Positions 8,849 through 58,047 of a stretch of DNA of 58,047 nt are shown in pieces. Origin of the DNA: a virus. Taxonomy: Duplodnaviria > Caudoviricetes. Each line of letters opens with the position of its first letter. Position 1 is the stretch's first letter. The notes under the pieces are model-generated. The model worked only from the letters and a program-made list of their open reading frames with translations. It was not told where the DNA came from and made no database searches. The DNA lies in the IMG/VR virus record IMGVR_UViG_3300036831_000092, positions 1 through 58,047 of that record; one strand, 5' to 3'. A program made the translations under genes and the position numbers.

Positions 8849-9450
8849 GCCGTAGTCTCGTACACCATGAACGTTTTTCCGTCCGTGCGTCCAGCGGGTC
8901 GCGCCACCATGTCGAGGGCCGTCACGTTCCATTTCTTCGCCAGCGTCAGATCGAGCTTGCCGACGTTCTTCGCCGCATACACGATGATGACCTGAAACTT
9001 CGTGGCATCGTTAGGAAGGGGCGAGACAACGGCGACCGGGATGAGGATGTAAGATTGTACGGCACTGTCCGAAATACCCTTCCATCCAGTCCCCGCTTGC
9101 GCCGAGAGGCCGGGTGCGAGCGCGGCGAGGTTGTCGTAATCCCTCACCTGTAAAATCTTGGTGGTGAGATGCACGTCCTGCGTCAGGTAGGCGTCACCTA
9201 TCGGCTCAGACTCCTGGTCAACCGGCAGGTCTTCAAAGGTCGGCGTGCGTGAGAGCATGAAGCCGTCCTGACTGTAGCCGACGTTTCGCGCGTTCGGGTG
9301 AGGCGGCGTCACGCCGCTATTCAGGAGCGACCCATCGGGCTGGAGTGTAATCGTCCCGTCGGCGTTGATTGTCGGGCTAATCCAGAACTCGGCCTTGACG
9401 CCGCGCATCACCGCCGCGATGTTGTGGTTGATTCCGGTCGGAGCAGGCAT
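8845..9450 (-). CDS. Major tail (tube) protein
   Basis: 201 aa; 'VGYSQDG' and 'VDQ' motifs; position; GAGGAG RBS. Confidence 0.75.
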   Translation of the reverse strand: MPAPTGINHNIAAVMRGVKAEFWISPTINADGTITLQPDGSLLNSGVTPPHPNARNVGYSQDGFMLSRTPTFEDLPVDQESEPIGDAYLTQDVHLTTKILQVRDYDNLAALAPGLSAQAGTGWKGISDSAVQSYILIPVAVVSPLPNDATKFQVIIVYAAKNVGKLDLTLAKKWNVTALDMVARPAGRTDGKTFMVYETTA

Positions 9451-9741: not shown

Positions 9742-10254
9742 CTAAGCCTCCGTCTGACTGAATACCAACGTGCCTCCCACCGCCCTGATGTTGCGCTGGC
9801 CGGTGAGGACGTTCCGACCTGGAACCCACTCCGGTATGTCAACGTCAACCAAACCCTGAACCTCCGGCGGGAATCCGTCGAGCAATGCCGCGCGATCTCC
9901 ACTCCCCCAAGTGGCCGCCGTGCGGATGATGGAGTCCACGACCCGGCTACGCTTAAAGAGCTTCTTCAAAAGCGCGTCGCGGTCGGGGTCTTCGTCCGCG
10001 ATGGCGATTAAGAACTCCGAAGACGAGTAGATCAGTTGTCCTTCCTCATTCTTTATCCCGTAGGTGCGCTTCCATTCGACTGTAAGACAGGCGAAATTCG
10101 CATCCGCGGGAACGGTCTGCGTGAAGTCCTCGAAAGGCGGGACGGCTTCACCCAAGACATCCTGCGAAGCCTCTACCCACCTTAGCTTGACGAGCGCCAA
10201 CACGTTCGCGGGCGCGGTCATCGCAAAGGTCGTGTCGAAGGCGGATTCAAACAT
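9742..10254 (-). CDS. Tail terminator/completion protein
   Basis: Size and position upstream of tube gene. Confidence 0.55.
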   Translation of the reverse strand: MFESAFDTTFAMTAPANVLALVKLRWVEASQDVLGEAVPPFEDFTQTVPADANFACLTVEWKRTYGIKNEEGQLIYSSSEFLIAIADEDPDRDALLKKLFKRSRVVDSIIRTAATWGSGDRAALLDGFPPEVQGLVDVDIPEWVPGRNVLTGQRNIRAVGGTLVFSQTEA

Positions 10255-10724
10255 CAGGCCGCGAGTCCCAGGTCTTTTGCGTAAGATGTCAACTCCGCGA
10301 CGAGTACATCACCGGCCACCCTCTGCGTCAGATCGTCGTAGATGATTCGTTGCGGCAGATTCCTTGACTCAACTCCCGTTTGGTGCGCGAGTGCATAAGG
10401 AAGCGTCGAACCCATCTCAAGAGATTCCGCGGACGGCTCCCAGATTGAGCCGTCCGCCCCCTCCTTAGTTAAGGACTCTTCCATCGCGCCGCTCGCGTGT
10501 AGAATCTTTGCGCCCGGATATTGCTTCGACTTGCGCGCCGCGTAACGCTCACTCAAGTCCGCCCAGCCCGGCCCCCCGGAGGAAAACTTTTCTGCCGTCA
10601 CCCGGCGAACCGCCTCTCCGACACCGGGCCACGCCGGGCGCAAGTCTGAGAGTCGCGCCAGCAGCGAGTCGAACGCCACGATCAAGGTCTCAAGTCCTTC
10701 GACTTCTATCCTTACTACGTCCAT
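10254..10724 (-). CDS. Virion morphogenesis protein (Mu gpG/P2 gpS-like)
   Basis: 'W..LS..Y', 'ILHASGAM..S', 'YALAHQTG', 'LPQR' motifs. Confidence 0.8.
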   Translation of the reverse strand: MDVVRIEVEGLETLIVAFDSLLARLSDLRPAWPGVGEAVRRVTAEKFSSGGPGWADLSERYAARKSKQYPGAKILHASGAMEESLTKEGADGSIWEPSAESLEMGSTLPYALAHQTGVESRNLPQRIIYDDLTQRVAGDVLVAELTSYAKDLGLAA

Positions 10725-11830: not shown

Positions 11831-13054
11831 TCACGCATTAACATTGAGGATTTTCACCGCCGCCGGGTCGAGGATGTCGTAAGCCTCGGTTTCGGTCATG
11901 ATGAAGTATTCGACCTGGCGCGCGGCCCACTTCTCTACCTCCTGAATGCTCGCGCCGATCTCGTAAACCCGCTCGACGGCGAACCGCTTGTCGAGGGCGA
12001 CGATTTCAAGAGCGGGCGCATCCGCCGTCCACCCAACGGCCACGTTGTCAGCGAGTCCGGGGTTGATGGCGCGGAAGCCGCCGTAACCGCCCATCGCCGA
12101 GATGAAGAAGAGCGGGACGTTGGCTGAACCGGTGTTCAGGAGTTGCATCGAGAGGACGACGCCGGTTTGCGCGAGCGCCGTCGTCATCATGTACGGGTTG
12201 GCGAAGAGCATCTTGAAGGCGAGCCAGCCTTTGAGGGTGAGCGTCCCAGCGGTGGCCGCCGGGTCGAGCGCGGTCAGGTTATAGACCGTGCCCGCGGTGT
12301 TGGCATTCCCGTCGCCGGAGACGAGGATAGAGACGATTGTGGAAACCTTGTCGGCCTCCGCCTGAACTGCCATGCGCTGAATCTGGAAGGCTACGAGGTC
12401 AATCGGCATCTGCCTCAAGACCTCGTAAGAGGTTTCTAGTTTCCGCCCGTACTTGTGAAGCTGAATCATGTGATTCCCGCCCACGAGTTTCGCGGTCGGA
12501 ATCTCCCCGGCCTCGGCGACACGCTTCATGCGCTGGTTTTCGGCGTCGTTCGTCAGGTAGAACGCCTGATAGACGCGCTGTGAAATCCCGGTGTTGAAGG
12601 CGATCAACTCGGAGAGAGGGATGGCCGGGGCGATCTGCTGGAAGCGGGGCTGCGAGGCGTAGGCGTAGGGGTTGTACGCTGTTCCGGGCGGTTGATCCTG
12701 ACTCGTATAGACGGCGCGGGTGTTGTAGGACTTACCCGTCACCGCCGAGCGCCAGAACCGCGCGATGAGTTCGGGAATGAGGGCGCGCGCGTGCTCGTCA
12801 TCCTCCATCTTCTTCAGCGGGTCGGCCTGCACACCGGCCTCTTCGATTGACTTGACGCGGATTCCGCCTGCCCGTAGAAGGCGACCGAAAGCGTCGAGCT
12901 TGGTGTCGGGGTGGTCGGACGATGGGTCGAGGTCTTCGAGGTAGAGCGACGGATTTTTTCCGGCGGCCAGCGCGTCGCGGTAAAAGTTATTCGTGACGGC
13001 CCGCAGAAGTTCGCCGGGCCTGCTCTCCGGCGTGCTGGTGGCGAGTTGGGTCAT
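11831..13054 (-). CDS. Major capsid protein (HK97 fold)
   Basis: 'VAEAGEIP', 'KYGRKLETSYE' motifs; AAGGAG RBS before ATG 13054. Confidence 0.88.
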   Translation of the reverse strand: MTQLATSTPESRPGELLRAVTNNFYRDALAAGKNPSLYLEDLDPSSDHPDTKLDAFGRLLRAGGIRVKSIEEAGVQADPLKKMEDDEHARALIPELIARFWRSAVTGKSYNTRAVYTSQDQPPGTAYNPYAYASQPRFQQIAPAIPLSELIAFNTGISQRVYQAFYLTNDAENQRMKRVAEAGEIPTAKLVGGNHMIQLHKYGRKLETSYEVLRQMPIDLVAFQIQRMAVQAEADKVSTIVSILVSGDGNANTAGTVYNLTALDPAATAGTLTLKGWLAFKMLFANPYMMTTALAQTGVVLSMQLLNTGSANVPLFFISAMGGYGGFRAINPGLADNVAVGWTADAPALEIVALDKRFAVERVYEIGASIQEVEKWAARQVEYFIMTETEAYDILDPAAVKILNVNA

Positions 13055-13073
13055 TTTCTTTCGGTCTCCTTCT

Positions 13074-13502
13074 TTAGAGGTCAACCACGACGTTCGTCGT
13101 GTCGCTCACGTCAACGATGCGGCCCCGGCACTTGATGAGTTCCGCGGCAGTGCCTGCCGCGGCAGAGCGGATGTAGCCGCGCGCCGAAGATGCGCCCAGC
13201 GCCCCGACGATCTTCGTGCCGCGAGTGAGCGTGGCCGACGCGCCGCCCGGTAGTTTCACGTAGCCCTCGACCTGGACTGACGCCTTGTTGTCGGACTCGA
13301 CGAGCAGAAGCTTGCCCTCCACGGCGTCGCTGTCCGCGGTCAGGGCCACCGTCCCGTCGCCGGAGAGCGTGACGGCGAGGCCGACCTGTGCAGAGCCTCC
13401 GGCCTTCGTGATGTCGTAAGTGATCGTTGAATTGTCGATGAGGTATGTGGCGACTTCCTCGCCGATGCCCTCGAATGCGACCGCGTTCCTGGGGTCTGCC
13501 AT
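13074..13502 (-). CDS. Capsid decoration/cement protein
   Basis: G/A/T-rich protein between scaffold and MCP. Confidence 0.7.
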   Translation of the reverse strand: MADPRNAVAFEGIGEEVATYLIDNSTITYDITKAGGSAQVGLAVTLSGDGTVALTADSDAVEGKLLLVESDNKASVQVEGYVKLPGGASATLTRGTKIVGALGASSARGYIRSAAAGTAAELIKCRGRIVDVSDTTNVVVDL

Positions 13503-13514
13503 CTTTTATCTCCT

Positions 13515-14738
13515 TTAGGCGGCGAACGCCGCGTCGGGCGTGCCCGTGGTCTTCCTGGCCTCGGCGACCTGTTCCTCGCCGTCCTCCGTCTGTCGCCCAC
13601 CCGGAAACTTCTCCTTCGCGATGCGCGACCAGTCGCCTTTCATCGTGCGGATCGTGTCGAGCGGGAGACCCTGAAGGGTGCGCTCGTATTCCTCCGTCTT
13701 GAAATCCGCGCCGTTGGCCCTCACGCCCTCAGCGATGGCCTCCGTGATGAGTGATTTACGGTAAGCCCTGCCGTCTGCGGCCTGCTCCGCAAGTGCACGC
13801 AGGTTGGCGCTGATGTCGCCTTCCGCAAACCCGGCCTCCGTGAGAAGCGAGCGCACCTGCGCGGCGTCAACTTCCGGTTGCATTGCCGCCTGAGTCGCGC
13901 GCTCGGCGTTGGGCTTATTTTGGTCTTCTGCTGCTGTGCTCATGTTTTCCTTCTCCGAATGGCCGGGCACACTCACGCGCTTCTCCGGCAGGTGAATCCT
14001 CAAGTGGCGCTCAAGGAATAATCTCGTCTTTGGCTCAAGGCTTCCGTCTTTCGCCTGCCTCGTTGCCTTCGCGATCATCGCGCCCGGCGTCGAGCCTTTA
14101 TAGACGCCACTAGCCTCCGCCAAATGCGCGTCCTCAACGTCAGCCGTACACATCTGCTCGCGGGTTTCGCCGTCGGCCTGAACCTTAGAGTTCATGCCCG
14201 GATAATGGCTGCACTCCTCCCACTCCCAAATGTCGTTTCCGCAGATAGAGCAAATCCACTCGCCGCCGTAGAAGCCGACGCTCACATCCGAGAGGACGCC
14301 GGAATCAATCGCGCGGATTATCTGGTCACTCTGAATTGTGCCGAGCTGAAGGCCGGTCACGACGTAGAAGTCCGCCAGCACACGCGCTACGCCATCGCCC
14401 TGCCCGCCGACGAATCGGCCCGACATCGAGCGCCCAACGATCTCCGCGCAATCGTGGGAGTAGAGGAATGAAACCCCGCCTTCCGCTTCCTGCGCATAGT
14501 TCTTAAGTGTTGACTGCGCCATGCGCGTGTAGTGGGAGTCGAGTCGGTTGTTGGAAATCTCCGCGGTGAAGAAGAACGGCTCATACTTCTGAAGCCCGGC
14601 CTCGTCGAAGGCGCGTCGCTCGACGGCGAGGGCGCGCAGTTCTTCGCGGGAGCGCACAAGGCCGCGCAAGTCGTCAGGGATGGTCGCCCCGATGATTGCC
14701 AGTGGGTATTGGAAGACTCGCTCTTGCGTATCGCCCAT
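13515..14738 (-). CDS. Prohead protease/scaffold fusion
   Basis: 'LYSH', 'DVSVGF', CSICG..C.H.PG motifs; helical acidic C-terminus. Confidence 0.8.
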   Translation of the reverse strand: MGDTQERVFQYPLAIIGATIPDDLRGLVRSREELRALAVERRAFDEAGLQKYEPFFFTAEISNNRLDSHYTRMAQSTLKNYAQEAEGGVSFLYSHDCAEIVGRSMSGRFVGGQGDGVARVLADFYVVTGLQLGTIQSDQIIRAIDSGVLSDVSVGFYGGEWICSICGNDIWEWEECSHYPGMNSKVQADGETREQMCTADVEDAHLAEASGVYKGSTPGAMIAKATRQAKDGSLEPKTRLFLERHLRIHLPEKRVSVPGHSEKENMSTAAEDQNKPNAERATQAAMQPEVDAAQVRSLLTEAGFAEGDISANLRALAEQAADGRAYRKSLITEAIAEGVRANGADFKTEEYERTLQGLPLDTIRTMKGDWSRIAKEKFPGGRQTEDGEEQVAEARKTTGTPDAAFAA

Positions 14739-40434: not shown

Positions 40435-40683
40435 TCATGCTGCTTCGACTTCGCGCGAGTATTTAGACTTGGGGCTGGCTGAAGGCTCGCGCCCGACCTT
40501 GTTGACGGACACTCCGAGATATTCGGCCAACTTCACCCTGATTTCCGGGTAAACGTGATAGCCCCTGCGGTGGATGACACGGGAGACGACTTCGGGAGTG
40601 ACCCCCCACAGCCGAGCAAGCCCTGCGATGGTGTCGCCCCTTTTCAGTATCTTGACCTTGATTTCTAAAGGCGAAAGTGACAT
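40435..40683 (-). CDS. Cro/Ner-like HTH protein
   Basis: 'TIAGLARLWGVTPEVVSRVI'; divergent from repressor; AAAGGA RBS. Confidence 0.75.
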   Translation of the reverse strand: MSLSPLEIKVKILKRGDTIAGLARLWGVTPEVVSRVIHRRGYHVYPEIRVKLAEYLGVSVNKVGREPSASPKSKYSREVEAA

Positions 40684-40725
40684 TGTTTTCCTTTGTGTGT
40701 CTTGTTCATGCAAGACACGAGAAGG

Positions 40726-40755
40726 AGTATATGGTTATTAAATAACCAATGTCAA
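40726..40755 (-). promoter_or_regulatory. Leftward early promoter with palindromic operator
   Basis: TTGACA-N18-TATACT containing TGGTTATTAAATAACCA (40732-40748). Confidence 0.85.
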
Positions 40756-40764
40756 GAAGAAAAT

Positions 40765-41406
40765 ATGTCCTGGAAATCCCTAGAAGAAAAAAAGAGGTCA
40801 AAAGAAATCGCCGATAAGGTGAGCGGGGTGGTGGAAGACTATCAAAAACAATATTTTGCGGAGAATCATATTCGCATATCAGTTCGCGAACTAGAAAGGC
40901 GAATGGACATGACTCACCCCATGTTAGATAACATAATGAAAAATAAGAATAATCTGCTTGATGACCGCTCTAGATGGTCTTTAATTAAGATTGGCGAATA
41001 TTTCGGAACATATTTTGACGAGGAAGAACTAAAGCCTTATATAGATACTTCAAAGGCGAGAGCGCGGGAGACCAAATCCGAAAAACCGCCTTTACCTGAG
41101 GCGAAAGAGGAGTCGAAAGATAAACTCGGAATTACCCGCAGCGATGTTAAGGGAGTTGCCGATGTCCAGGTGATTGGCAGACCTGTTGTACGCGCTTTGG
41201 TAAAAGAGCAAAATGAGGGGCTTGGGATCACAATAAGAACGGCGTCCGTCATTACTTTCATTAAAGCAATGGCTAACGAAAGGGGCGAGTCGATTGATAA
41301 TATAGGCGAAACACTTATGCTGCGTGGAATGCGAATTTTCCAGCAACAGGCGCAAATAGACAAACTGCGTAAACCCAAGAAGCCGCCTAAATCTAAAAGG
41401 AAGTGA
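40765..41406 (+). CDS. Putative immunity repressor
   Basis: HTH 'SVRELERRMDMTHPMLDNIM'; position between two operator-bearing promoters; no S24 peptidase motif seen. Confidence 0.65.
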   Translation: MSWKSLEEKKRSKEIADKVSGVVEDYQKQYFAENHIRISVRELERRMDMTHPMLDNIMKNKNNLLDDRSRWSLIKIGEYFGTYFDEEELKPYIDTSKARARETKSEKPPLPEAKEESKDKLGITRSDVKGVADVQVIGRPVVRALVKEQNEGLGITIRTASVITFIKAMANERGESIDNIGETLMLRGMRIFQQQAQIDKLRKPKKPPKSKRK

Positions 41407-41415
41407 GGTTAGTCC

Positions 41416-41832
41416 ATGAACTCTTGCCCCTGGTGTGGCAGACCCTCCCGTCGGCCATACAAACTGTGCGATGATTGTTACCAAAGAGCCATAAGCTTGC
41501 CTACGGTACCCGTGGAGGAGTTCGACCGTTTGCCATATGGCATTATTGAGTTGGACGCATCTGGCAAGGTACTGGCATTCAACCGTTTTGAGGCAACCCG
41601 TTCCTGTTGCCGGCCTCAAGATGTTATCGGCAAAAACTTCTTCCGCGACATTGCGCCCTGCACTAACGTACAAGAGTACGAAGGGCGATTCAGAAGCTTT
41701 CTCAGTTCCGATGAGGTCGAGGAAGAGTTTGATTTTACCTACCCCTTTGAGCCAGACACAGTGGTGCACATCGTTTTCGTCAAGGTGCTCGACAGTTGTG
41801 TGCTGATAGTCAGTAAAGAAAAGGTGGCCTGA
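41416..41832 (+). CDS. Photoactive yellow protein-like PAS protein with N-terminal Zn ribbon
   Basis: 'LPYGIIELD..G..LAFN..E..P..VIGKNFFRDIAPCT' matches PYP signature including chromophore Cys. Confidence 0.85.
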   Translation: MNSCPWCGRPSRRPYKLCDDCYQRAISLPTVPVEEFDRLPYGIIELDASGKVLAFNRFEATRSCCRPQDVIGKNFFRDIAPCTNVQEYEGRFRSFLSSDEVEEEFDFTYPFEPDTVVHIVFVKVLDSCVLIVSKEKVA

Positions 41833-41851
41833 AAGGAGACTCCATGCAGCC

Positions 41852-42157
41852 ATGAGCACATCAAGTCGCTATCCCCTCTTAGAAATAATTGCTTTCATAT
41901 TGCAGATTGTCTCCGCGTTGACGGTCGTTGCGGCTCTGACTTTGGCGGTAAAGACTTACATGGACGTAGAAGATCATACTACGCCCGCATTTATTTACTC
42001 TGTCGGCGTTACTCTCTTAATGGGAGTCGTCGTCGCAACGGTCGTGTGGGTAGTCGCCGGCGTTCTCCTTATATTGATTCACATCGAAGAAAACACACGC
42101 CAGTTAGCCGAGTCGTTGAAGCTACGGGATGAAATCGCGGGCGCGTTGAAGGGATAA
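41852..42157 (+). CDS. Two-TM membrane protein
   Basis: Hydrophobic helices, 'IHIEENTR'; AAGGAG RBS. Confidence 0.7.
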   Translation: MSTSSRYPLLEIIAFILQIVSALTVVAALTLAVKTYMDVEDHTTPAFIYSVGVTLLMGVVVATVVWVVAGVLLILIHIEENTRQLAESLKLRDEIAGALKG

Positions 42158-42214
42158 ATGAGGTGCGGGCGAGTTAAAGTGTACGAAGCTTATAAGGTGT
42201 GAAAAGGAAAATCT

Positions 42215-42640
42215 ATGTCGGATGAAGTTAAAGGCGTTGTGGAGTTTTCTGAGGTCGTAGATGTTGCCATCAGAGAAGACGGCGAGGAAGTCAAACTCAC
42301 CTGTAAGGGCGACGACGGCCTGCTGTTCGATATGCTCATACCGGTGGATGCCGTCGTCCCTCTCAGTAAGCGTCTTCTGGAAATCGGACGTTCTGCGCGC
42401 ATCAGCAAGATGGCCTCGCGCCCCGTCATCTTCCGCCAGCCGCAATTCACGACGCCGCCCCCGCTCTTTCTAGTTACCGGACTATCCGGCGTCGTGTACC
42501 CCGAATCAGGGCAAATTGATTTACAGATAACACCGATGCGTGGGCCGGACATTCAACTGAGCCTGCCAGCCGAGAACGCGAAAGCACTTTTTGACCTTCT
42601 GCTTCAGGTTTATAACCTTGACGACCAAAAGCCGAGTTGA
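42215..42640 (+). CDS. Hypothetical protein (immunity region)
   Basis: AAGGA RBS; ORF track. Confidence 0.6.
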   Translation: MSDEVKGVVEFSEVVDVAIREDGEEVKLTCKGDDGLLFDMLIPVDAVVPLSKRLLEIGRSARISKMASRPVIFRQPQFTTPPPLFLVTGLSGVVYPESGQIDLQITPMRGPDIQLSLPAENAKALFDLLLQVYNLDDQKPS

Positions 42641-42777: not shown

Positions 42778-42806
42778 TTGACGTGGTTATTAAATAACCA
42801 TATAAT
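42778..42806 (+). promoter_or_regulatory. Rightward early promoter with identical operator
   Basis: TTGACG-N17-TATAAT; the spacer is TGGTTATTAAATAACCA. Confidence 0.88.
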
Positions 42807-42864
42807 ATTTTTGTCTTGCAAGGGCAAGACAGGCGGGGGCCGAACACTTAGAGAGGTGACGAAG

Positions 42865-43110
42865 ATGACCGGCACATTCAAAGGCTCATACAGATTCAAG
42901 CCCGAAGGTCGCCAGTGGGAAGTAATGAGTGAGAGCGGCAACAGCTACACCGTGACCATCTGGGTTGACCCTCAGTTCGGACGCCTCGCGCTCTGTTCAT
43001 GCCGCGCATCCGAGTTCGACCGCCCTTGCCGTCACCTTCAATTCATCGGCTGCGCCGACGCGGTTCTATTTGACGCCCCGGTTCGTGAGATTCAGCCCAT
43101 CGCAGCCTAG
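42865..43110 (+). CDS. SWIM zinc-finger protein
   Basis: 'SESGNSYTV..CSC..PCRHL'. Confidence 0.75.
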   Translation: MTGTFKGSYRFKPEGRQWEVMSESGNSYTVTIWVDPQFGRLALCSCRASEFDRPCRHLQFIGCADAVLFDAPVREIQPIAA

Positions 43111-46895: not shown

Positions 46896-47108
46896 ATGCG
46901 AGAGGAAAGAAAAAGACTGAGTACAGCCAAAGAGATCGCGGAGTTGCTTAACACTTCGCGCCGGATGGTTCACTACTTCCGAAAGCGCCACGGTATGCCC
47001 GCCTGTCGGTTCGGCCCGCGCACCTATCGGTTCGACAGGGATGATGTTCTCCGCTGGAGCGAGAACTTCAACACGAAAGGCTCGCGGCCTGACCTCCGGG
47101 CGGTGTAG
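46896..47108 (+). CDS. xis: Excisionase (HTH_17-like)
   Basis: 'STAKEIAELLNTSRRMV..GMPA..YRFDRDDV..W'; upstream of integrase. Confidence 0.8.
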   Translation: MREERKRLSTAKEIAELLNTSRRMVHYFRKRHGMPACRFGPRTYRFDRDDVLRWSENFNTKGSRPDLRAV

Positions 47109-47154
47109 GATAGCGCCCTCCGGCAGCACCGGGGCGCGGGAAAGGACTACCCGC

Positions 47155-48210
47155 ATGGCAGTCAAAGAGCGACCGTTCAAGGGAAGCGGGCACTGGCATT
47201 TTGATTTTCGGGTGTCAGGCGCGCGCTACCGCGGCACGATACCGGAAGCCCGCACTAAGCCTCAAGCTAAACAGGCTGAGGCGAAACTGCGGACTCTCAT
47301 CTTCGAGGGCAAGTACGAGAAGGCCGCAAAGCCCATGACCTTCTCGGAATTTTTGGAAGGGCACTACAAAGACTACTGCAAGACGCACGTCAAGGCGTGG
47401 CGGCAGATGTTTAATTGCGCCGCGTTAGCCTGCGATTTCTTCGCGGGCAAACACCTCTCGGAAATCTCGGCCTTCCACGTAGAGAAGTACAAGGTCGAGC
47501 GAATAAGGACGCCGACCATAAAGGGCACGACACGCAAGGCCAACACCCTGAACCACGAACTGATGGCGCTCTCGCACGCTTTGAACCTGGCCGTCAGGCT
47601 CGGATTCTTAAAGGCCAATCCCGCGTCGCGGGTCAGGCGTCCGAAGTGGGAGCGCAGGGAGAGGTATTTGACTGCGGAGGAAGAAAGCCGACTCCGCGAA
47701 GTGATTAACGCGGGCCGCGACCCGTGGATCGGCGACCTGACTCTCTTCGCTTTAAACACCGGCATGAGGCAGTCGGAGATACTTCAACTTGAATGGTCGC
47801 GCGTTGACTTCTCCAGAGGGGTAGTTAAGGTTACACAGACCAAGACCTGCACCGCCAGAGAAGTACCCTTAAATGCCGAAGCCCGGAGCGTGCTGGAGGC
47901 GCGTGAAGGTGGAATAAGGTTCGTCTTCGCCGAATGCGGAATGTTGTTGCACCGGGCGACCCTTAGTCGGAGGTTTAAGGCTTTGAAGAAAGAGGCCGAG
48001 ATAGAGGACTTCCACTTCCACGATCTTCGTCACACCACCGCGACCAAGATGCTTGACGCCGGAATCAGGGAGAGTGTTATCGCCAGAGTTTTGGGCCACT
48101 CATCAACGGCAATGACGGCCATTTACGCCCACGTCAAGGACGAACAGACGAAGGCCGCCGTGGAATCTCTTGGTCACGTTCCGGTCACAGCGGAAAGAAA
48201 AACCGCTTGA
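47155..48210 (+). CDS. int: Tyrosine integrase
   Basis: TGMRQSE, FHDLRHT, LGHSS, YAH catalytic motifs. Confidence 0.95.
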   Translation: MAVKERPFKGSGHWHFDFRVSGARYRGTIPEARTKPQAKQAEAKLRTLIFEGKYEKAAKPMTFSEFLEGHYKDYCKTHVKAWRQMFNCAALACDFFAGKHLSEISAFHVEKYKVERIRTPTIKGTTRKANTLNHELMALSHALNLAVRLGFLKANPASRVRRPKWERRERYLTAEEESRLREVINAGRDPWIGDLTLFALNTGMRQSEILQLEWSRVDFSRGVVKVTQTKTCTAREVPLNAEARSVLEAREGGIRFVFAECGMLLHRATLSRRFKALKKEAEIEDFHFHDLRHTTATKMLDAGIRESVIARVLGHSSTAMTAIYAHVKDEQTKAAVESLGHVPVTAERKTA

Positions 48211-48988: not shown

Positions 48989-50185
48989 TTACGATTGGTG
49001 ATTGACGATTGACGAAAGGAAACTTTCGCCCGCGCCGAGCTTGAGGCCGAAGTTGTCGGCGATGGTCTGGCCGATGTCGGAGAGCGAGGCGCGGTCGCCG
49101 AGGTTGACTCCGGCGCGTGCGCTCTTGCCGTAGACGAGGAGCGGGGCGTACTCGCGCGTGTGGTCGGTGCCGCGGTAGGTTGGGTCGTTGCCGTGGTCGG
49201 CTGTGATGACGAGGAGGTCTGTGTCGTTCATCACCGCTTCGATTTCGGGGAGGCGCGCGTCGAAGTGCTCCAGCGCGCGGGCGTAGCCTTCCGTGTCGCG
49301 GCGGTGGCCGTAGAGCATGTCGAAGTCAACGAGGTTCGAGAAGACGAGGCCGCGCGTTTGGCCTTGAAGCGCGGCGATAGTCTCGTCAATGGATTGATCG
49401 TTGTTCTTGCCGGGCAGTTCCCTCGTGACGCCCGCGGCGTCGTAGATGGAACTTATCTTGCCGACGGCGACAACGTCTAACCCCGCGCCGGAGAGCACGG
49501 GCAGGAGCATTTCGCGCGGCGGCGCGACCGCGTAGTCGTGCCGGTTCTCAGTCCGCCGAAAAGCGCCCGGCTCTCCGACGAAAGGGCGCGCGATGACGCG
49601 GCCCACCTCGTGCTCGCCGCGCAGAATGTTTCGCGCCGTCTCGCAAATCTCGTAGAGACGCCTGAGGGGCACGACCTCTTCGTGCGCGGCGATCTGAAAG
49701 ACCGAGTCGGCGGACGTGTAGATGATGGGCTTGCCCGTGCGGACGTGCTCCGCGCCGAGTTCCTTGATGATCTCCGTGCCCGACGCAGGCGTGTTGCCGA
49801 GGACGCCGGGCACGCCCGTCTCACTGACGAAGCGTTCGATGATCTCCGCGGGGAAGCCTTCGGGGTAGGTCGGGAAGGCGCGCTCCAGAATGATGCCGGC
49901 CATCTCCCAGTGGCCCGTCGTCGTGTCCTTGCCGTTCGAGCGCAGGGCGCAGCGACCGAACGAGCCGCGCGGCGCGGCCACGGGCGGCACGCCCGCGAGC
50001 GTGCGGATGTTGCCCAGACCCCAGCTTCGCAGGTTCGGCAACTTCACTTCGCGCGACTCAAGGACGTGGCCGAGCGTGTCCGCGCCCGCGTCGCCCCACG
50101 CGGCTGCGTCCGGCATCTCGCCAATGCCGAGGCTGTCGAGGACGATCAGAGCGATGCGCTCGAAGGCGCGTTTGTCGTTCGTCAT
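48989..50185 (-). CDS. deoB: Phosphopentomutase
   Basis: LDSLGIG, GKDTTTGHWE, YTSADSVFQIAAHE, ITADHGNDP, DHTRE. Confidence 0.96.
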   Translation of the reverse strand: MTNDKRAFERIALIVLDSLGIGEMPDAAAWGDAGADTLGHVLESREVKLPNLRSWGLGNIRTLAGVPPVAAPRGSFGRCALRSNGKDTTTGHWEMAGIILERAFPTYPEGFPAEIIERFVSETGVPGVLGNTPASGTEIIKELGAEHVRTGKPIIYTSADSVFQIAAHEEVVPLRRLYEICETARNILRGEHEVGRVIARPFVGEPGAFRRTENRHDYAVAPPREMLLPVLSGAGLDVVAVGKISSIYDAAGVTRELPGKNNDQSIDETIAALQGQTRGLVFSNLVDFDMLYGHRRDTEGYARALEHFDARLPEIEAVMNDTDLLVITADHGNDPTYRGTDHTREYAPLLVYGKSARAGVNLGDRASLSDIGQTIADNFGLKLGAGESFLSSIVNHQS

Positions 50186-51947: not shown

Positions 51948-52022
<75 letters not shown>

Positions 52023-52055
52023 GACATACCCACGGTTTGAAAATTTAAGGTTCTC

Positions 52056-53300
<1,245 letters not shown>

Positions 53301-53427
53301 AATTCACTGATAATACAATATTTCACTCTTGGGATAAAGACTTTTTCTATCCTAGTAGGGCTTTGCCGATGTGATGAATAACGTAGCTGACAATGAATTC
53401 TGCCCTTTTCCAAATTCGTTTAAGCAC

Positions 53428-53727
53428 CTAATCGAGTTTAATGATCTCACCTTCCTCAACTACCATTCTTTCGCGCATAGGCTTGTCTTTGAGCGGCGCA
53501 TAAGCACCTTGTTCCCTTGCCACGCTCATAAGCCTTTCCTGAAGGTTTTCTAGTTGCCTCTTAACGTCCAAGTATTTGTTTAGGAGGGAGACTGGAACCG
53601 TAAAGGTTTTTCTATTGTTGTTAGCGGGCGTCCGGTTGATACTGAACGTCTTGTAGCCTTCATTGATGACTGCTAATTCAACTTTTTCTTCCGTATGTTC
53701 TTCTTCCCTTCGCGGTAATGACGACAT
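53428..53727 (-). CDS. Hypothetical protein
   Basis: ORF track; start uncertain. Confidence 0.45.
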   Translation of the reverse strand: MSSLPRREEEHTEEKVELAVINEGYKTFSINRTPANNNRKTFTVPVSLLNKYLDVKRQLENLQERLMSVAREQGAYAPLKDKPMRERMVVEEGEIIKLD

Positions 53728-54043
53728 AAGTGATGAATGGATAATTATCTACAAACAGCTTGAGCTTTAATCTCCATATCGGGGTAGCGAAGCCCTTATA
53801 TTCCCAAACCTGTTCCGTTCCGTTTTTCAGCTTTACGAAGAAATCAACTTTGTGATTGCAGATTTGAGCACCATGCAGGCCATATAGCGGAAAGTTTTTT
53901 TGTGGCTCTACCTTGAGAAGTTTGCCCGACTTAATAAGCAGATCAATTTCTTGTGCAAGACCCGCCTCGCCCTTACTGTCATAGAGTCGGCCATTGTACT
54001 CAGTTCTCTTATTGAAGAATTTAGTGCGTCGTTGGTAAGACAA
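53678..54043 (-). CDS. DUF1064-like PD-(D/E)XK protein
   Basis: 'K..NKRT..NG..YDSKGEA', 'VDF', 'EYKGF.T...LK.KL'. Confidence 0.8.
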   Translation of the reverse strand: MSYQRRTKFFNKRTEYNGRLYDSKGEAGLAQEIDLLIKSGKLLKVEPQKNFPLYGLHGAQICNHKVDFFVKLKNGTEQVWEYKGFATPIWRLKLKLFVDNYPFITYVVITAKGRRTYGRKS

Positions 54044-54054
54044 ACGTGTGAGGG

Positions 54055-54387
54055 TTAATTATTTTCTTCGGTTACATTTCCGTCCAGTGTGCCGTTCTCG
54101 ATGCTGACAGATCCACACTCCGGGCATTGAGCATCAATTAAGGCGAGATTGGATTTGAACGAGTGGCGGCAGTCGGTACAAAGATAATCTCTTACCTTTC
54201 TTGGCCGCCCCTTGGCCTTCACTTTGATTGTGTATAGGCTTTTCCCCTTCTTCCGGCCCCTGCGCTTTTTAACAGGCTCCGGGGCTTCTTCAATCAATCG
54301 CCCCCCGACGAGATTTAAGAGCTGCGATTCGAGGGATTCCAACTGCCTGCACAAATCGCGCACCATCTCAACTTTTGTTTTGTCCAT
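54055..54387 (-). CDS. Zn-ribbon/AT-hook-like hypothetical protein
   Basis: KRRGRKK, KGRPRK, CxxC..CPECGS. Confidence 0.6.
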   Translation of the reverse strand: MDKTKVEMVRDLCRQLESLESQLLNLVGGRLIEEAPEPVKKRRGRKKGKSLYTIKVKAKGRPRKVRDYLCTDCRHSFKSNLALIDAQCPECGSVSIENGTLDGNVTEENN

Positions 54388-54839
54388 TATTGAGTTGTTA
54401 ATACTTTGAACTTATGAACAAAGGACTGACTTAAAAAGACGTGTTTGGGAACTAAGGCGGCAGGTATCTTGAATTCTCCGACAAGCTTCTTTACTGGATA
54501 GCCATCAGCGAACGGTAGGAGGTCTTTAAGAAACATGGAGTATAAGCTTACGTCACCGTTTTCTGGCAGGCCGTATATCCAAATGGGAGAGATGGATTGA
54601 TGGAGTGCGGCCGGTTCAATACACACGTTGCCGGTCGCCTCAGAAAGCTCGTCATACTTCATTTCGAGCTTACAGAGTTCGCCGTTGATCCGAACTTCCC
54701 TATCCCAGCCTTTCTTATCTCGGTACTTCAGGTTGTCGCTATCAATAACCTCGCAGCCTTTTTCTTTAAGCACCTTTTCAACCTCACTTTCAAACCACCT
54801 CCCTACTTTTTTTCTATCTTTGAAATAGGCCGACTCCAT
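54387..54839 (-). CDS. PD-(D/E)XK nuclease-like protein
   Basis: 'G..FE', 'WD..EMKYD..TGNVCIE'. Confidence 0.7.
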   Translation of the reverse strand: MESAYFKDRKKVGRWFESEVEKVLKEKGCEVIDSDNLKYRDKKGWDREVRINGELCKLEMKYDELSEATGNVCIEPAALHQSISPIWIYGLPENGDVSLYSMFLKDLLPFADGYPVKKLVGEFKIPAALVPKHVFLSQSFVHKFKVLTTQ

Positions 54840-55118
54840 AGTTCATTTGTTATTTATTACCTCTCCTCTTCCCATACTCTGAATAGTTGTGCTTAGTGAT
54901 CCGCGAGGACGTTCCATAAGCCCATCCGATTTCCCATCCGTTCTTGTTTAAGGTTCTCTTGTGAACCGGGCAGCGCAGGCGTTCTAGCCTGTTCCTGTTT
55001 GGCTTCTTGCCGGTATAGCGATAGCAAACAGTAAGCGGCTTGCCGCACTTCTTGGGATGATGAAACTTTGGGTGTTTGTATTCTTCTTCTGGGGTCAAAG
55101 AAGGCGGGTGGTTACTCG

Positions 55119-55194
55119 TGGCGGGTGGTTTGGGAATCGAACCCAACGCGGCTGCTTTTGGAGAGCGGCCAGCCTATCCTTGGCGTTCCCACCC
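55119..55194 (-). tRNA. Degenerate tRNA-Trp(CCA)
   Basis: 76 nt, CCA at 34-36, TTCGATT T-loop, G73, CCA end; mismatches at 7:66 and 28:42, atypical D arm. Confidence 0.7.
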
Positions 55195-55264
55195 TTTATT
55201 ACAGGATAGCAAGCCTATTAGAATGGTCAATGCCAGTTATCCACAGCCTTATGGAAGAATGATT

Positions 55265-55822
55265 ATGAGAATAAGTAATGATGCTAAAGAGCTAGCCAAG
55301 CTGAAATACATTCGAGGCGCGCAAGAGATTTCAAGCAAGCACTACGCGAATATTGAGCGATTTGAACGGACGATGCCGCGAGGTGGCATGATGAAAGGCG
55401 CGATAGACAAAGAGCATTTGCAGATGATCCAAGAACTAGCTGACTTATATTTGGAAGCCCACCTTGAAATGTTTGTAGCTGAAGGGATATTGCCCGATAC
55501 AAACGATATGAGGGAGTTCCGGGCCGAGATTGAAAATATAGTCAGCCGCAGATCAGGCGGTGAATTTTGGAGTCCGAGGCCATCAACTAACTCAACTCTG
55601 TCTTTCCTTCCACAAAGCATCTATATCAACTTCGCCAACAGGGTAAAGCAAATGGAGCTTGAAGCCAGGGTACACAAGGCCGCGCCAGAGCAACCGGCAA
55701 GCACCAGCTATAACACAACGATTCATGGCCCCAATTACGGTAACATTCAGCAGGGGGGTCAAGGTAATACTCAATCTGTAACCCGCGCCGGGTCAGAAGA
55801 GGAAGGCGATGAGGAAAATTGA
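55265..55822 (+). CDS. Tandem paralog 1 with C-terminal N/Q/G (RHIM-like) motif
   Basis: MRISNDAK..YNTTIHGPNYGNIQQGGQGNTQS. Confidence 0.8.
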   Translation: MRISNDAKELAKLKYIRGAQEISSKHYANIERFERTMPRGGMMKGAIDKEHLQMIQELADLYLEAHLEMFVAEGILPDTNDMREFRAEIENIVSRRSGGEFWSPRPSTNSTLSFLPQSIYINFANRVKQMELEARVHKAAPEQPASTSYNTTIHGPNYGNIQQGGQGNTQSVTRAGSEEEGDEEN

Positions 55823-56369
55823 TTTAAGAATTAGCGCAGCCAGGAAGAAGCTGGCAGACAGCGAGTATAAGAAACAGGCTATCGAGATTGATAGGCGTTA
55901 TTCGCACATCAAGCTTAATGATATTACCTTTCACATGATGCGCGAAAAGGAGAGCCGTCAATATTTTCAAATCTACGCAGAGTGGATGAAGATAAAAGTG
56001 CGTGCAAGGCTACAAACCTACTTAGAAGCTTTCAAGGAAGAAGGGGTAATACCGGACGATGCTGACCTAAGCAATATGAGCTGGGCTTTTCAGGGCGTGA
56101 TAGAAGACTTTACCGCTTCCCTCCCTCAAGAATTAAGCTCAGCATTGCAGCAGCTTGGGAGAATGCAGGTAATCGAGGACGCCCGGAGAGATATTGACAT
56201 CTTTGCCCAAAAGATGAGCATTGAACAAATGAGGGCAGAGGCCCAGAAGCCCCAGCCGCCGCATGGGAATATCTACAATATGTACATAGGAGAAAATCGC
56301 GGGCCTATCCAGCAGGGCGGCAGCAGCAACACCCAAAGCACCAGCGGGAGCAATGATGAAACTAAGTGA
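55809..56369 (+). CDS. Tandem paralog 2
   Basis: ..YNMYIGENRGPIQQGGSSNTQS. Confidence 0.8.
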   Translation: MRKIDLRISAARKKLADSEYKKQAIEIDRRYSHIKLNDITFHMMREKESRQYFQIYAEWMKIKVRARLQTYLEAFKEEGVIPDDADLSNMSWAFQGVIEDFTASLPQELSSALQQLGRMQVIEDARRDIDIFAQKMSIEQMRAEAQKPQPPHGNIYNMYIGENRGPIQQGGSSNTQSTSGSNDETK

Positions 56370-56939
56370 AGATGCGAAGAAATTAGCTGAAGCCCTAATG
56401 AGCAAAGACCATTATCAGGTAGCTCTTTGGGCAGAAGAAGACATCAGAAGAGTGAGAGCCGCGAGAACACAATCAAACCCGCAATTCAATCAATTAATCG
56501 CCCATCACGAGGAGAGTATTAGAAGGACTTTCAAATACATAATTAACGCTTACGTTGAAGGTTACAAGATGGACAACTCGTTGATGGACGATGAAGATAG
56601 ACATGAAATTATTGAGTTCATTAGAAGCATGATTAATCGGCGGCTCGAACATATTACCAACTCAGTGGTGGGCCGTGACTTTATCATCCATATACCGGCG
56701 AAAAAATCCCTAACCTAGACGCTCAATTGGCTGGTCACTTCGACAGGTTGGTAGGAGAGGCAGCGGTAGAATTAAACTTGGTTCAGAACCAAATGGTAAT
56801 GGATCAGAAACGACGAGAGCGTGAAGAAAGATTAAGGGCTAACCAAATAAACATCTACGGCCACAACTACGGCAATATCCAACAGGGCGGCAGCGGTAAT
56901 ACTCAAAGTACCAGCGAGGGCGGCGATGAAGTTAAGTGA
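56356..56939 (+). pseudogene. Tandem paralog 3, frameshifted near 56690
   Basis: Two ORF halves align to paralog 4 if one base is restored; ends INIYGHNYGNIQQGGSGNTQS. Confidence 0.75.
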
Positions 56940-57504
56940 AGATGCGAGTAAGTACGCGGAATCAATTTACAGAAAAGTTTTTACGCAATGCGCTATTGAT
57001 GGCGAAACAGAGCGTCGGAAAATCCGGGCGACTGCGACCCCAAGTAATCCTAATATCCCACAGATGTCAGATCACTTCGTTAGCCTCACAAAGCGGCTGG
57101 TTGATGCGCGGCTTGATTCTTACGTCCAAGCATACAAGCAGGACGGCCTGCTCATTGACGAAGAAGACAAGGACGAAATTATCGAGGCGCTTAGGAAGAT
57201 CATCAAAAACAATATAATGTGGGTAACTACTGACTCCACTCTCCGAGAATTCAGACTGCCCAATACCGGCCAGCTTATCCCCAACATGGAGTCCTACATG
57301 ACCGCCCGCCTTGAAAGAATACTTGGGGAAGCTGCGGTTGATTTAGATTTAGCCAGGAATCAAATGGTAATGGAGCGGAAGAATAGGAAAACTGAACTGC
57401 CGCCCACCCATTACAACATTCATGTCTATGGAGATAATCACGGCAATATTCAACAAGGCGGAGAGAATAACAGTCAGACCATTAACCCCAAGGAGGACGA
57501 GTAA
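56926..57504 (+). CDS. Tandem paralog 4
   Basis: MKLSEDAS..YNIHVYGDNHGNIQQGGENNSQT. Confidence 0.8.
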   Translation: MKLSEDASKYAESIYRKVFTQCAIDGETERRKIRATATPSNPNIPQMSDHFVSLTKRLVDARLDSYVQAYKQDGLLIDEEDKDEIIEALRKIIKNNIMWVTTDSTLREFRLPNTGQLIPNMESYMTARLERILGEAAVDLDLARNQMVMERKNRKTELPPTHYNIHVYGDNHGNIQQGGENNSQTINPKEDE

Positions 57505-57510
57505 CTTCCG

Positions 57511-57951
57511 TTAGGTCAAGCTACCGATGAACTGCCAAAACTGATTCCATTCAGTATTGCGTCTTGAACACTGCAAGATCACACCGCCAGTCTTAAAGAA
57601 ATTCAACAGGCTACCCATCTGTATAATGTCGTTATCTAGCTTCTTAGCAAGCAATAGGTACGGCACAAGGAGCTTGATTACTTCGGCGTGCGCCAGCGAG
57701 GTTTTTAACGGTGAGGCGTAAATCTTATTAAGCTTCGGAATCTCATCAAACAGCGTCCGGGTAGCCGGAAACTGTCCGGCCTCACACGCTATAAAAATCA
57801 TCTTCTGCGGATTGAAGGGTAAGACCCAATGCGCGAAGGCTTCCCACGTCAGAAGCATATCAGGCGCTATGCTGATGACCTCGCGGTTGCTGTGCGCTAT
57901 AACGACAACAAGCTTGATGGAACTGTATTTGCCTTTGTAGTCACCAAACCA
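57511..57951 (-). CDS. Possible CHAT/caspase-fold protease fragment
   Basis: Frame open to 57951; 'LVVVIAHS' and 'MIFIACEAG' resemble His/Cys dyad strands. Confidence 0.4.
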   Translation of the reverse strand, partial: WFGDYKGKYSSIKLVVVIAHSNREVISIAPDMLLTWEAFAHWVLPFNPQKMIFIACEAGQFPATRTLFDEIPKLNKIYASPLKTSLAHAEVIKLLVPYLLLAKKLDNDIIQMGSLLNFFKTGGVILQCSRRNTEWNQFWQFIGSLT

Positions 57952-58047
57952 CTATGCACTGAAAGTGCATAGGTTGCCGTGGGACTGAAAGTCCCACATC
58001 ATTCGAGGATGAACCGGTCGCTTTCACGGTTCATCCTCGAATGATGT
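57952..58047. repeat. Cluster of three hairpins at window end
   Basis: CTATGCACT-GAA-AGTGCATAG; GTGGGACT-GAA-AGTCCCAC; perfect 21-bp IR 57996-58016/58027-58047. Confidence 0.8.

Follow-up and report, generated by a model that had tools for sequence, protein, structure and literature searches.

A photoactive yellow protein relative with a zinc-ribbon N-terminus, encoded behind the repressor gene of Acidobacteriota phages, is probably a sensor coupled to lysogeny control

The stretch of DNA analysed here (the window) is the whole of the IMG/VR record IMGVR_UViG_3300036831_000092, a linear sequence of 58,047 bp with a CheckV completeness of 85. It carries a tailed, temperate phage, whose minus strand encodes a large terminase, a portal, a major head protein, a tape measure and a J-like tail fibre. 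On its plus strand lies a four-gene cassette, bounded by two identical 17-bp palindromes, which encodes a repressor-like protein, a relative of photoactive yellow protein (PYP) with a four-cysteine zinc ribbon at its N-terminus (hereafter ZnR-PYP), and open reading frames (ORFs) of 101 and 141 amino acids (aa). The original prediction, made from the sequence by eye, had taken the PYP-like protein for a possible sensor, of light or of host aromatic acyl-CoA, within the repressor operon. Here we report that it is a PYP-family protein by sequence, that its gene directly follows a repressor gene in every phage locus found, and that it is probably a sensor coupled to the lysogeny repressor. The features of the cassette are as follows.

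40765-41406, plus strand: repressor-like protein, 213 aa from ATG, with an N-terminal helix-turn-helix (HTH)-type domain, a C-terminal domain without assignment and no S24 peptidase
41416-41832, plus strand: ZnR-PYP, 138 aa, with a four-cysteine zinc ribbon (residues 4-21), a helix (19-30) and a PYP-type PAS core (~32-135)
41852-42157, plus strand: 101-aa protein with two transmembrane (TM) segments predicted by hydropathy, not conserved in the sister phages
42215-42640, plus strand: 141-aa ORF (ORF141), last gene of the cassette, function not assigned by the libraries
40732-40748, no strand: operator copy 1, the 17-bp palindrome TGGTTATTAAATAACCA
42784-42800, no strand: operator copy 2, the same 17-bp palindrome TGGTTATTAAATAACCA
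40755-40726, minus strand: leftward sigma-70-like promoter, PR-equivalent (TTGACA, 18 nt, TATACT; 11/12 consensus), with operator copy 1 in its spacer
42778-42806, plus strand: rightward sigma-70-like promoter, PL-equivalent (TTGACG, 17 nt, TATAAT; 11/12 consensus), with operator copy 2 in its spacer

The ZnR-PYP gene starts 9 nt past the repressor stop codon, with a Shine-Dalgarno-like GGAAGTGAGG before the gap. As first described, its product has Cys4, Cys7, Cys18 and Cys21 at the N-terminus, followed by a PAS domain, and the PYP signature noticed by eye was borne out when the protein was searched against hidden Markov model (HMM) libraries and the PDB. NCBIfam TIGR02373 ('photoactive yellow protein') matches it at E 7e-24 (84.3 bits), as compared with ~1e-4 for generic PAS models (Pfam PAS 23.0 bits, cut-off 22.6), and every one of the 33 distinct PDB sequences that it matches is a PYP or a Ppr PYP domain (best match 1mzu, E 1.4e-18; PDB PYPs overall 1e-17 to 1e-18). 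An AlphaFold2 model built on a 37-sequence alignment (pLDDT 87.9, pTM 0.80) has its five strands and its helices arranged as in a PAS domain; ahead of them come a short knuckle region and a helix (residues 19-30). By these sequence matches and the predicted secondary structure the fold is PAS/PYP, and judged by its sequence the window protein is a true PYP relative with a PYP-type PAS domain.

Residues were numbered through the HMMER alignment to PDB chains (PYP to window protein, offset +13), which returned the same mapping as the earlier comparison by eye. Cys69 and Glu46 are kept, as Cys82 and Glu59, as are Ile31, Phe62, Ala67 and Pro68; replaced are Tyr42 (Phe55), Thr50 (Ser63), Arg52 (Cys65), Tyr98 (Phe111) and Met100 (Pro113), and Phe96 is Tyr. 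The four-cysteine ribbon takes the position of the PYP N-terminal cap. The family is defined by Xing, Gumerov and Zhulin 2022 (PMC9664959) as PYP-type PAS domains with Cys69; of Tyr42 and Glu46, at least one of which is to be kept for the hydrogen bond to the phenolate, the window protein has Glu46, as Glu59. In the main texts of PMC9664959 and PMC12826048, no natural substitution is commoner than Y42F (~9% of PYP homologues), which is compatible with binding of p-coumaric acid (pCA), and the former adds that it never coincided with the loss of Glu46. In the public gene call (P0001; 100% identity, 77% coverage) the protein is a 106-aa form that begins at an internal start and lacks the ribbon. 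Since all four ribbon cysteines, like Cys69, are invariant in 37 of 37 aligned relatives, the 138-aa form is favoured. Automated gene calls may mask the zinc-ribbon architecture in other records, as in P0001.

The gene upstream can be read from ATG or from an alternative TTG start at 40693, which yields a 237-aa protein. Residues 43-115 of its product align with the HTH_3 region of the S24 repressor of a sister phage, L003 (BLASTP E 3e-7). No Pfam HTH model matches the protein, a PDB search returned nothing significant, and a word-indexed search of 5.8 billion proteins found only the protein itself. The absence of an S24 autocleavage motif, remarked on at the outset, was upheld: Peptidase_S24 (PF00717) gives no match at E<=1, and neither a G[DE]SM nor an Ala/Gly-Gly cleavage motif is present. 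On the far side of the operator-bearing promoter, a Ner/Cro-like HTH gene and a ParB-like gene run divergently from it. Given this position and the alignment with the L003 HTH_3 region, 'repressor' is the best reading of the 40765-41406 product, with DNA binding predicted.

In the window the palindrome TGGTTATTAAATAACCA is found twice without mismatch. If up to 3 mismatches are allowed and both strands are counted, the number of matches rises to 4 (expectation 0.05), and none of 100 shuffles gave as many. Both operator-bearing promoters face outward from the cassette, and the rightward one heads plus-strand genes that end with an integrase. Because the two palindromes lie in outward promoters flanking the cassette, its four genes occupy the position of lambda cI-rexA-rexB. 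No plus-strand terminator-like site was found between 41406 and 42640. Hydropathy, palindromes and promoters agree with the earlier statement that a two-TM protein and a further ORF follow the PYP, all between two operator-bearing promoters. In the 101-aa protein, 19-residue Kyte-Doolittle windows at or above 1.6 start at ~residues 7-19 and 43-64; its Pfam matches are weak and sub-threshold, and its gene has no tblastx match in the sister phages L002 or L003. ORF141 has no Pfam, NCBIfam or PHROG match, and its protein atlas matches are all below 0.9 and unnamed. The G+C content of the cassette is 0.43-0.51, as compared with a phage average of 0.57.

The arrangement is not confined to the window. 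A search of IMG/VR with a profile of the window protein and two relatives (P0002 and P0003, 52-55% identical and with the same four-cysteine N-terminus) yielded two further PYP-bearing contigs, namely L002, a 55.6-kb record with direct terminal repeats, and L003, a provirus. An independent IUPAC scan of IMG/VR (KNFF...A.C..V) hit 44 stretches, and a PYP is encoded in L002 and L003 only. The original prediction had suggested looking for repressor-PYP synteny in other prophages, and both contigs have it: in L002 the final 11 nt of the gene for a 209-aa Peptidase_S24 repressor (S24 E 1.4e-16) also belong to the ZnR-PYP gene (9992-10402), and in L003 the ZnR-PYP gene (9998-10426) shares 20 nt with the end of an HTH-S24 repressor gene (S24 E 2.1e-17). 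The repressor gene is thus followed directly by ZnR-PYP in all three phage loci found. Operator-like repeats flank these cassettes as well (a 43-nt inverted repeat at 9114-9156 and 11893-11935 in L003; a 16-nt repeat at 9316 and 10742 in L002), and L003 has the same divergent Ner-like and ParB-like genes as the window. A phage-borne PYP is very rare: neither the window PYP nor P0027, a fused relative described below, has a tblastn match in 50,697 GenBank phage records.

Downstream of the PYP gene the three loci differ. L002 has a 73-aa zinc-ribbon ORF there, L003 a 256-aa ORF with a hydrophobic, by eye signal-peptide-like N-terminus, and by tblastx the window and L002 have essentially the PYP alone in common in the cassette region. 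As they are not conserved in L002 and L003, the two-TM gene and ORF141 lie outside the core module. Of the proposed sensor in the repressor operon, then, family membership, the kept Cys and Glu and the place between operators all stand, strengthened by the synteny and by the fused relatives; the two-TM gene and ORF141 do not belong to its core.

Turning to relatives in sequence databases, we searched 1.84 billion cluster representatives exhaustively with an HMM, which returned 2030 matches at E<=1e-3 and 18 at E<=1e-30; the counts of representatives given here refer to the best 150 of the 2030, 138 of which are at most 330 aa long. Four ribbon cysteines are present in 48 of these 138, and two or three in 7 more. 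All 48 four-cysteine representatives keep Glu46 and Cys69, and at the Tyr42 position they have Tyr (35), Phe (11), Leu (1) or Val (1).

Fourteen of the best 150 representatives (11 with four cysteines, 3 with a partial ribbon) are extended at the N-terminus by 65-170 residues. In one of them, P0067, HTH_31 and HTH_3 score above the Pfam cut-offs. In another, P0027, 48 residues of the N-terminus align at 50% identity (E 5e-11) with the N-terminal domain of the S24 repressor of L002; this domain has no Pfam or PDB match and is ribbon-helix-helix-like by eye only. The same DNA-binding domain thereby occurs in two settings, either with S24 at its C-terminal side and ZnR-PYP as the next gene, or with ZnR-PYP attached directly. 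On the evidence of these alignments, the proteins that join a DNA-binding domain to ZnR-PYP are Rosetta-stone fusions. The fused form was found in 0 of 401 Acidobacteriota genomes, where the lone match into the DNA-binding part of the profile is a read-through at the provirus L003. Nor did the word-indexed database contain 'longer' forms of the window protein, which counts as weak evidence.

A maximum-likelihood tree was built from 62 PAS cores, comprising 48 of the 150 representatives chosen by architecture (the other 102 were not included), the window, L002 and L003 proteins, P0002 and P0003, 4 cellular proteins and 5 canonical or other ones. The three phage proteins, P0002, P0003 and 13 of the 14 fusions fall into a single clade of 23 rows (18 of the 19 rows so labelled; UFBoot 95, SH-aLRT 91), separate from canonical PYPs and from the cellular ZnR-PYPs of Holophaga, Thermoanaerobaculia, Pyrinomonadaceae and Blastocatellia. 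Within it Glu46, Cys69 and Phe62 are each kept in 23/23 and Ala67 in 22/23, and position 96 is Tyr in 22/23. The Tyr42 position is Phe in 12 and Tyr in 8, the Arg52 position is hydrophobic in 20/23, and Met100 is not conserved. The Tyr at position 96 may offer a substitute hydroxyl. As judged by residue conservation, the chromophore site is under selection in ZnR-PYPs.

Full-length ZnR-PYPs also occur in metagenome-assembled genomes (MAGs) of Acidobacteriota. The profile matches 24 of the 401 Acidobacteriota genomes, and one such locus (L035) is the L003 provirus itself, within MAG G003. The cellular proteins of Thermoanaerobaculia, Holophaga, Pyrinomonadaceae and Blastocatellia (L031, L032, L033, L034 and L037) are ~150 aa long; their ribbon is longer and includes a conserved His-Gly-Ile-Cys, Tyr42 is kept, and the genes around them are not those of phages. 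In view of these cellular forms, the zinc-ribbon N-terminus is an acidobacterial PYP architecture in its own right. By inspection, none of 27 metagenome loci (L004-L030) has the four-cysteine N-terminus; several encode PYP-histidine kinases, and the weakest are generic multi-PAS proteins. The PYP-histidine kinases form a family of ~370 aa (metagenome contigs L004 and L008-L011) in which an N-terminal PYP with Tyr42, Glu46 and Cys69 is joined to a kinase core.

The hosts of these phages are Acidobacteriota. In the window, host DNA begins beyond the phage integrase, and a metalloenzyme gene there (48992-50185) is 80% identical to its homologue in G003, the best match for this host flank among 201 Acidobacteriota genomes searched (77 with a match), so that the window host is an acidobacterium close to G003. 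The flanking features are listed here.

40435-40713, minus strand: Ner/Cro-like small HTH protein, first leftward lytic gene (Pfam HTH_35 7.4e-5, below cut-off; PHROG 769 'transcriptional repressor' 2.9e-4)
47041-48210, plus strand: tyrosine integrase (PF00589 E 1.3e-35), ending the rightward (PL-side) gene set
52077-53300, minus strand: second tyrosine integrase gene (PF00589 E 9.7e-23), overlapping the end of a tRNA-Asp gene (52058-52134)

The Ner/Cro-like protein is 59% identical (tblastx) to its L003 homologue, and alignment with the latter indicates that its true start is probably an internal ATG near 40683. A second inverted repeat seen by eye at 40697-40718 (GTGTCTTG-6 nt-CAAGACAC) lies over the annotated start of this gene, between the operator palindrome and the gene, and could be a second operator or a 5' hairpin. 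On the other side of the cassette, the first ORFs of the rightward operon (42778-43110 in the window, 12561-12959 in L002) have a CxC...CxH pattern that resembles a SWIM-type zinc finger by eye; the window ORF has no Pfam match. In L003 a 321-aa ORF made up mostly of tandem seven-residue repeats (NSSVVAR/W-like; 12880-13845) lies right of the rightward operator region. Window positions 51948-58047 belong to a second integrated element; to the right of its integrase, in DNA that includes a DUF1064 gene, G+C is 0.47, as compared with 0.65 in the host segment (48.2-52 kb). Given the second integrase at tRNA-Asp and this shift in G+C, the record holds, besides one prophage, a short stretch of host DNA and the margin of a further element.

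Taken together, these results suggest that ZnR-PYP is probably a sensor coupled to the lysogeny repressor. We propose that it would be made in lysogens from the repressor's own transcript and would act together with the repressor, presumably by contact, as a sensory input to the lysis-lysogeny switch, the free protein being the split form of a one-component, repressor-type DNA-binding protein with a C-terminal ZnR-PYP. The likeliest signal would be blue/UV-A light, received by a hydroxycinnamoyl chromophore that would be loaded by host enzymes, held as a thioester on Cys82 (Cys69) and hydrogen-bonded to Glu59 (Glu46). In PYP the N-terminal cap detaches in the signalling state; here, photoactivation would shift the zinc-ribbon/linker region and thereby alter repressor dimerisation or the repressor's hold on its operators. 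The effect of light might be either to induce the prophage or to maintain lysogeny. Since the window repressor lacks autocleavage, a protein-level antirepressor would be its natural route to induction, and in L002 and L003 ZnR-PYP would serve as a second input beside SOS. Functional coupling of ZnR-PYP to the repressor strikes us as fairly likely; the whole proposal, with light as the signal of this input, we rate as a serious candidate with somewhat less than an even chance of being right. Light gating of lysogeny as such is plausible but unproven.

Several observations weigh against this reading. As regards the photoreceptor itself, the window protein falls under the TIGR02373 equivalog cut-off (84.3 vs 143.05 bits), a model that covers only ~20% of PYP homologues according to the main text of PMC9664959, and Tyr42, Arg52, Tyr98 and Met100 are all substituted in it. 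As regards the partner, there are just three phage contexts, with window and L003 being related phages, and no one domain is common to the three repressors (HTH in window and L003, S24 in L002 and L003, a different N-terminus in L002), so that no common docking surface is evident. Cellular acidobacterial ZnR-PYPs, by inspection of the ORF lists, do not lie beside repressors, and therefore the ribbon by itself is not repressor-specific. As regards the fusions, their clusters are rare, metagenome-only proteins on 1-3 contigs, and no fusion locus was found in viral-contig scans (queries: the fusion alignment, P0041 and P0027). Apart from that of P0067, their N-terminal domains are 'ribbon-helix-helix-like' by eye only, with no Pfam or PDB support, and the AlphaFold2 model of P0027 has a confident ribbon and PAS core, a helical N-terminal region of modest to low confidence and a low-confidence linker.

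Chromophore supply belongs with these difficulties. The original prediction had noted that genes for tyrosine ammonia-lyase (TAL) and p-coumarate-CoA ligase (pCL) are missing from the window, so that any chromophore would come from the host, and indeed TAL-type PF00221 and acyl-CoA ligase PF00501 are found in 0 of the 3 viral records (window, L002 and L003). The PYP-type pCL model TIGR02372 scores above cut-off in 0 of the 5 ZnR-PYP-bearing Acidobacteriota genomes, and in one of the five, a complete chromosome, it has no match even at 1e-10. All five genomes have a PF00221 gene; the assignment of this host gene as TAL was rejected in the two examined (G003 and G004), where it scores above cut-off as the histidine ammonia-lyase gene hutH, with the G003 copy lying beside hutU. 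The main text of PMC12826048 places tal in 5% and pcl in 32% of pyp operons and proposes uptake of pCA from the environment, so their absence counts only weakly against canonical loading. Moreover, G003, the host of the L003 provirus, encodes a PYP-histidine kinase of its own (G003:C1:243812-244933) with the full Tyr42/Glu46/Cys69 triad, and hence some route of chromophore loading presumably exists there. This kinase is 67% identical to the metagenome form.

The same gap in supply lends itself to a different account, in which ZnR-PYP is coupled to the repressor and responds to a chemical, i.e., p-coumaroyl-/hydroxycinnamoyl-CoA, plant phenolic acids as a nutritional cue of litter and soil, or thiol redox, with acylation of Cys82 as the switch. 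With no dedicated TAL or pCL in the phages or the five host genomes, loading may depend on outside supply, and a vicinal pair, Cys64-Cys65, sits beside the pocket of the window protein, although this pair is not kept even in its closest relatives. Arg52 and Met100 tune the PYP photocycle, and in the phage/fusion clade the Arg52 position is hydrophobic in 20/23 members and Met100 is not conserved. Environmental uptake of pCA, raised in PMC12826048, fits as well. However, Glu46 with Cys69, present in 23/23 members, is the signature of a functional phenolate-binding photoactive site according to PMC9664959, and this survey and PMC12826048 describe as a photoreceptor each characterised PYP with Cys69 that their main texts name. 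We consider a chemical sensor unlikely.

Less likely again is that the cassette is a moron in the rexA-rexB position, whose PYP, two-TM protein and ORF141 serve the lysogen (in light behaviour or in aborting superinfection) and provide no input to the switch. Its place between two operators on the repressor strand, as in lambda cI-rexA-rexB, a membrane protein directly after the sensor, its G+C below the phage average, and the cellular ZnR-PYPs of the host phylum as a possible source for capture are all as expected of such a moron. Yet L002 and L003 lack the two-TM gene and ORF141 and have other genes behind the PYP, and with the two-TM gene beside the PYP in neither of them, a RexAB-like pair of sensor and membrane effector is not seen there. 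The sole conserved feature is the repressor-PYP adjacency, with overlapping frames, and fusions to repressor-type DNA-binding domains would not be expected of a moron. We regard as very improbable a further possibility, that free ZnR-PYP is a decoy which pairs with the fused repressors of rival prophages or incoming relatives and inactivates or stabilises them, its own repressor working independently. Free and fused forms do share one clade, which makes hetero-association conceivable, the window's own repressor has no domain in common with the fusions, and non-SOS modules that decide the winning prophage are known (PMC10432266). Such pairing is nonetheless purely inferential, with no evidence of ZnR-PYP dimerisation; free and fused forms were never seen in one genome, and translational coupling to its own repressor argues for a partner in cis. 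A sensor coupled to the adjacent repressor is the reading that we prefer.

In its most ambitious form, which we put forward tentatively and think more doubtful than not, Acidobacteria phages would time the lysis-lysogeny decision by a photoreceptor, with a hydroxycinnamate-loaded ZnR-PYP reporting daylight to the repressor and the fusions acting as one-component light-switchable repressors. If so, daylight might hold lysogeny while sunlight destroys virions, or it might trigger escape before UV damage. Such a protein would be without precedent in two ways, as a photoreceptor within a phage decision circuit and as a PYP with a known output, namely DNA binding through an identified partner. Prophage induction is understood almost wholly via DNA damage, a picture changed by a few phage chemical sensors (of quorum signals and arbitrium); a photoreceptor-type sensor wired to a repressor would add a light cue and tie the dynamics of phages in soils, mats and sediments to day-night cycles. 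The PYP field, for its part, has had no downstream partner after four decades, and the PYP signal transduction chain is called an important gap in the abstract of PMC12826048; a partner is suggested here by gene overlap and by the DNA-binding-domain fusions. The fused forms would amount to small optogenetic repressors of natural origin, based on the photocycle that biologists have studied best. What is new here is the N-terminal module of this PYP, the class of its fusion partners and its place in a phage immunity region. Word searches of the literature found no paper tying PYP or any photoreceptor to prophage control; within their main texts, the words phage, zinc, repressor, DNA-binding and HTH are absent from PMC9664959 and PMC12826048, as is 'ribbon' from the latter.

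Set beside PYP itself (Halorhodospira halophila; the Ppr domain of Rhodocista centenaria, 1mzu), the window protein has the same PAS core with Cys69, Glu46, Ile31, Phe62, Ala67 and Pro68, and differs in having a ribbon for the cap and in being phage-encoded in an immunity operon with no pcl or tal nearby. The immunity region of lambda is ordered OR / cI-rexA-rexB / OL. As in lambda, the window has a repressor gene followed by same-strand accessory genes between the operator sets of outward lytic promoters, a divergent Cro-like gene, and an integrase at the end of the PL-side operon. Unlike lambda, it shows one palindrome per promoter (three in lambda), its accessory gene encodes a PYP-family sensor, and S24 is missing from its repressor, although present in those of L002 and L003. 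In ImmR-ImmA, too, a repressor is followed by a co-transcribed and post-translationally controlled antirepressor, ImmA being a metalloprotease. The likeness is that a regulator of the repressor would be made constitutively from the repressor operon, and hence be controlled at the protein level; the difference is that nothing suggests catalysis in ZnR-PYP.

Sensors joined to DNA-binding domains offer a second set of parallels. VqmA is a PAS domain joined to a DNA-binding domain, and the fused ZnR-PYPs follow the same logic of sensor plus DNA-binding domain. The VqmA-Phi/Qtip system of phage VP882 and the TF-smORF modules of Silpe et al. 2023 (PMC10432266) resemble our case in being phage-borne sensors of a non-SOS cue. 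Those sensors activate a gene for a small antirepressor, and their own genes lie apart from that of the repressor, whereas ZnR-PYP would be co-transcribed and translationally coupled with its repressor, lacks a DNA-binding domain and belongs to the photoreceptor type. One-component light-regulated DNA-binding proteins are represented by the LOV-HTH protein EL222, the LOV-bZIP aureochromes and the B12-dependent repressors CarH/LitR, none of which, to our knowledge, has a PYP domain. Among multidomain PYPs, the main text of PMC12826048 names partners of the GGDEF, EAL, PHY, V4R, MCP, REC and histidine kinase types and no DNA-binding fusion. In EL222, aureochromes and CarH/LitR, a photosensor is fused to a DNA-binding domain and light alters dimerisation or DNA binding, which makes them the closest analogy for P0027 and P0067.

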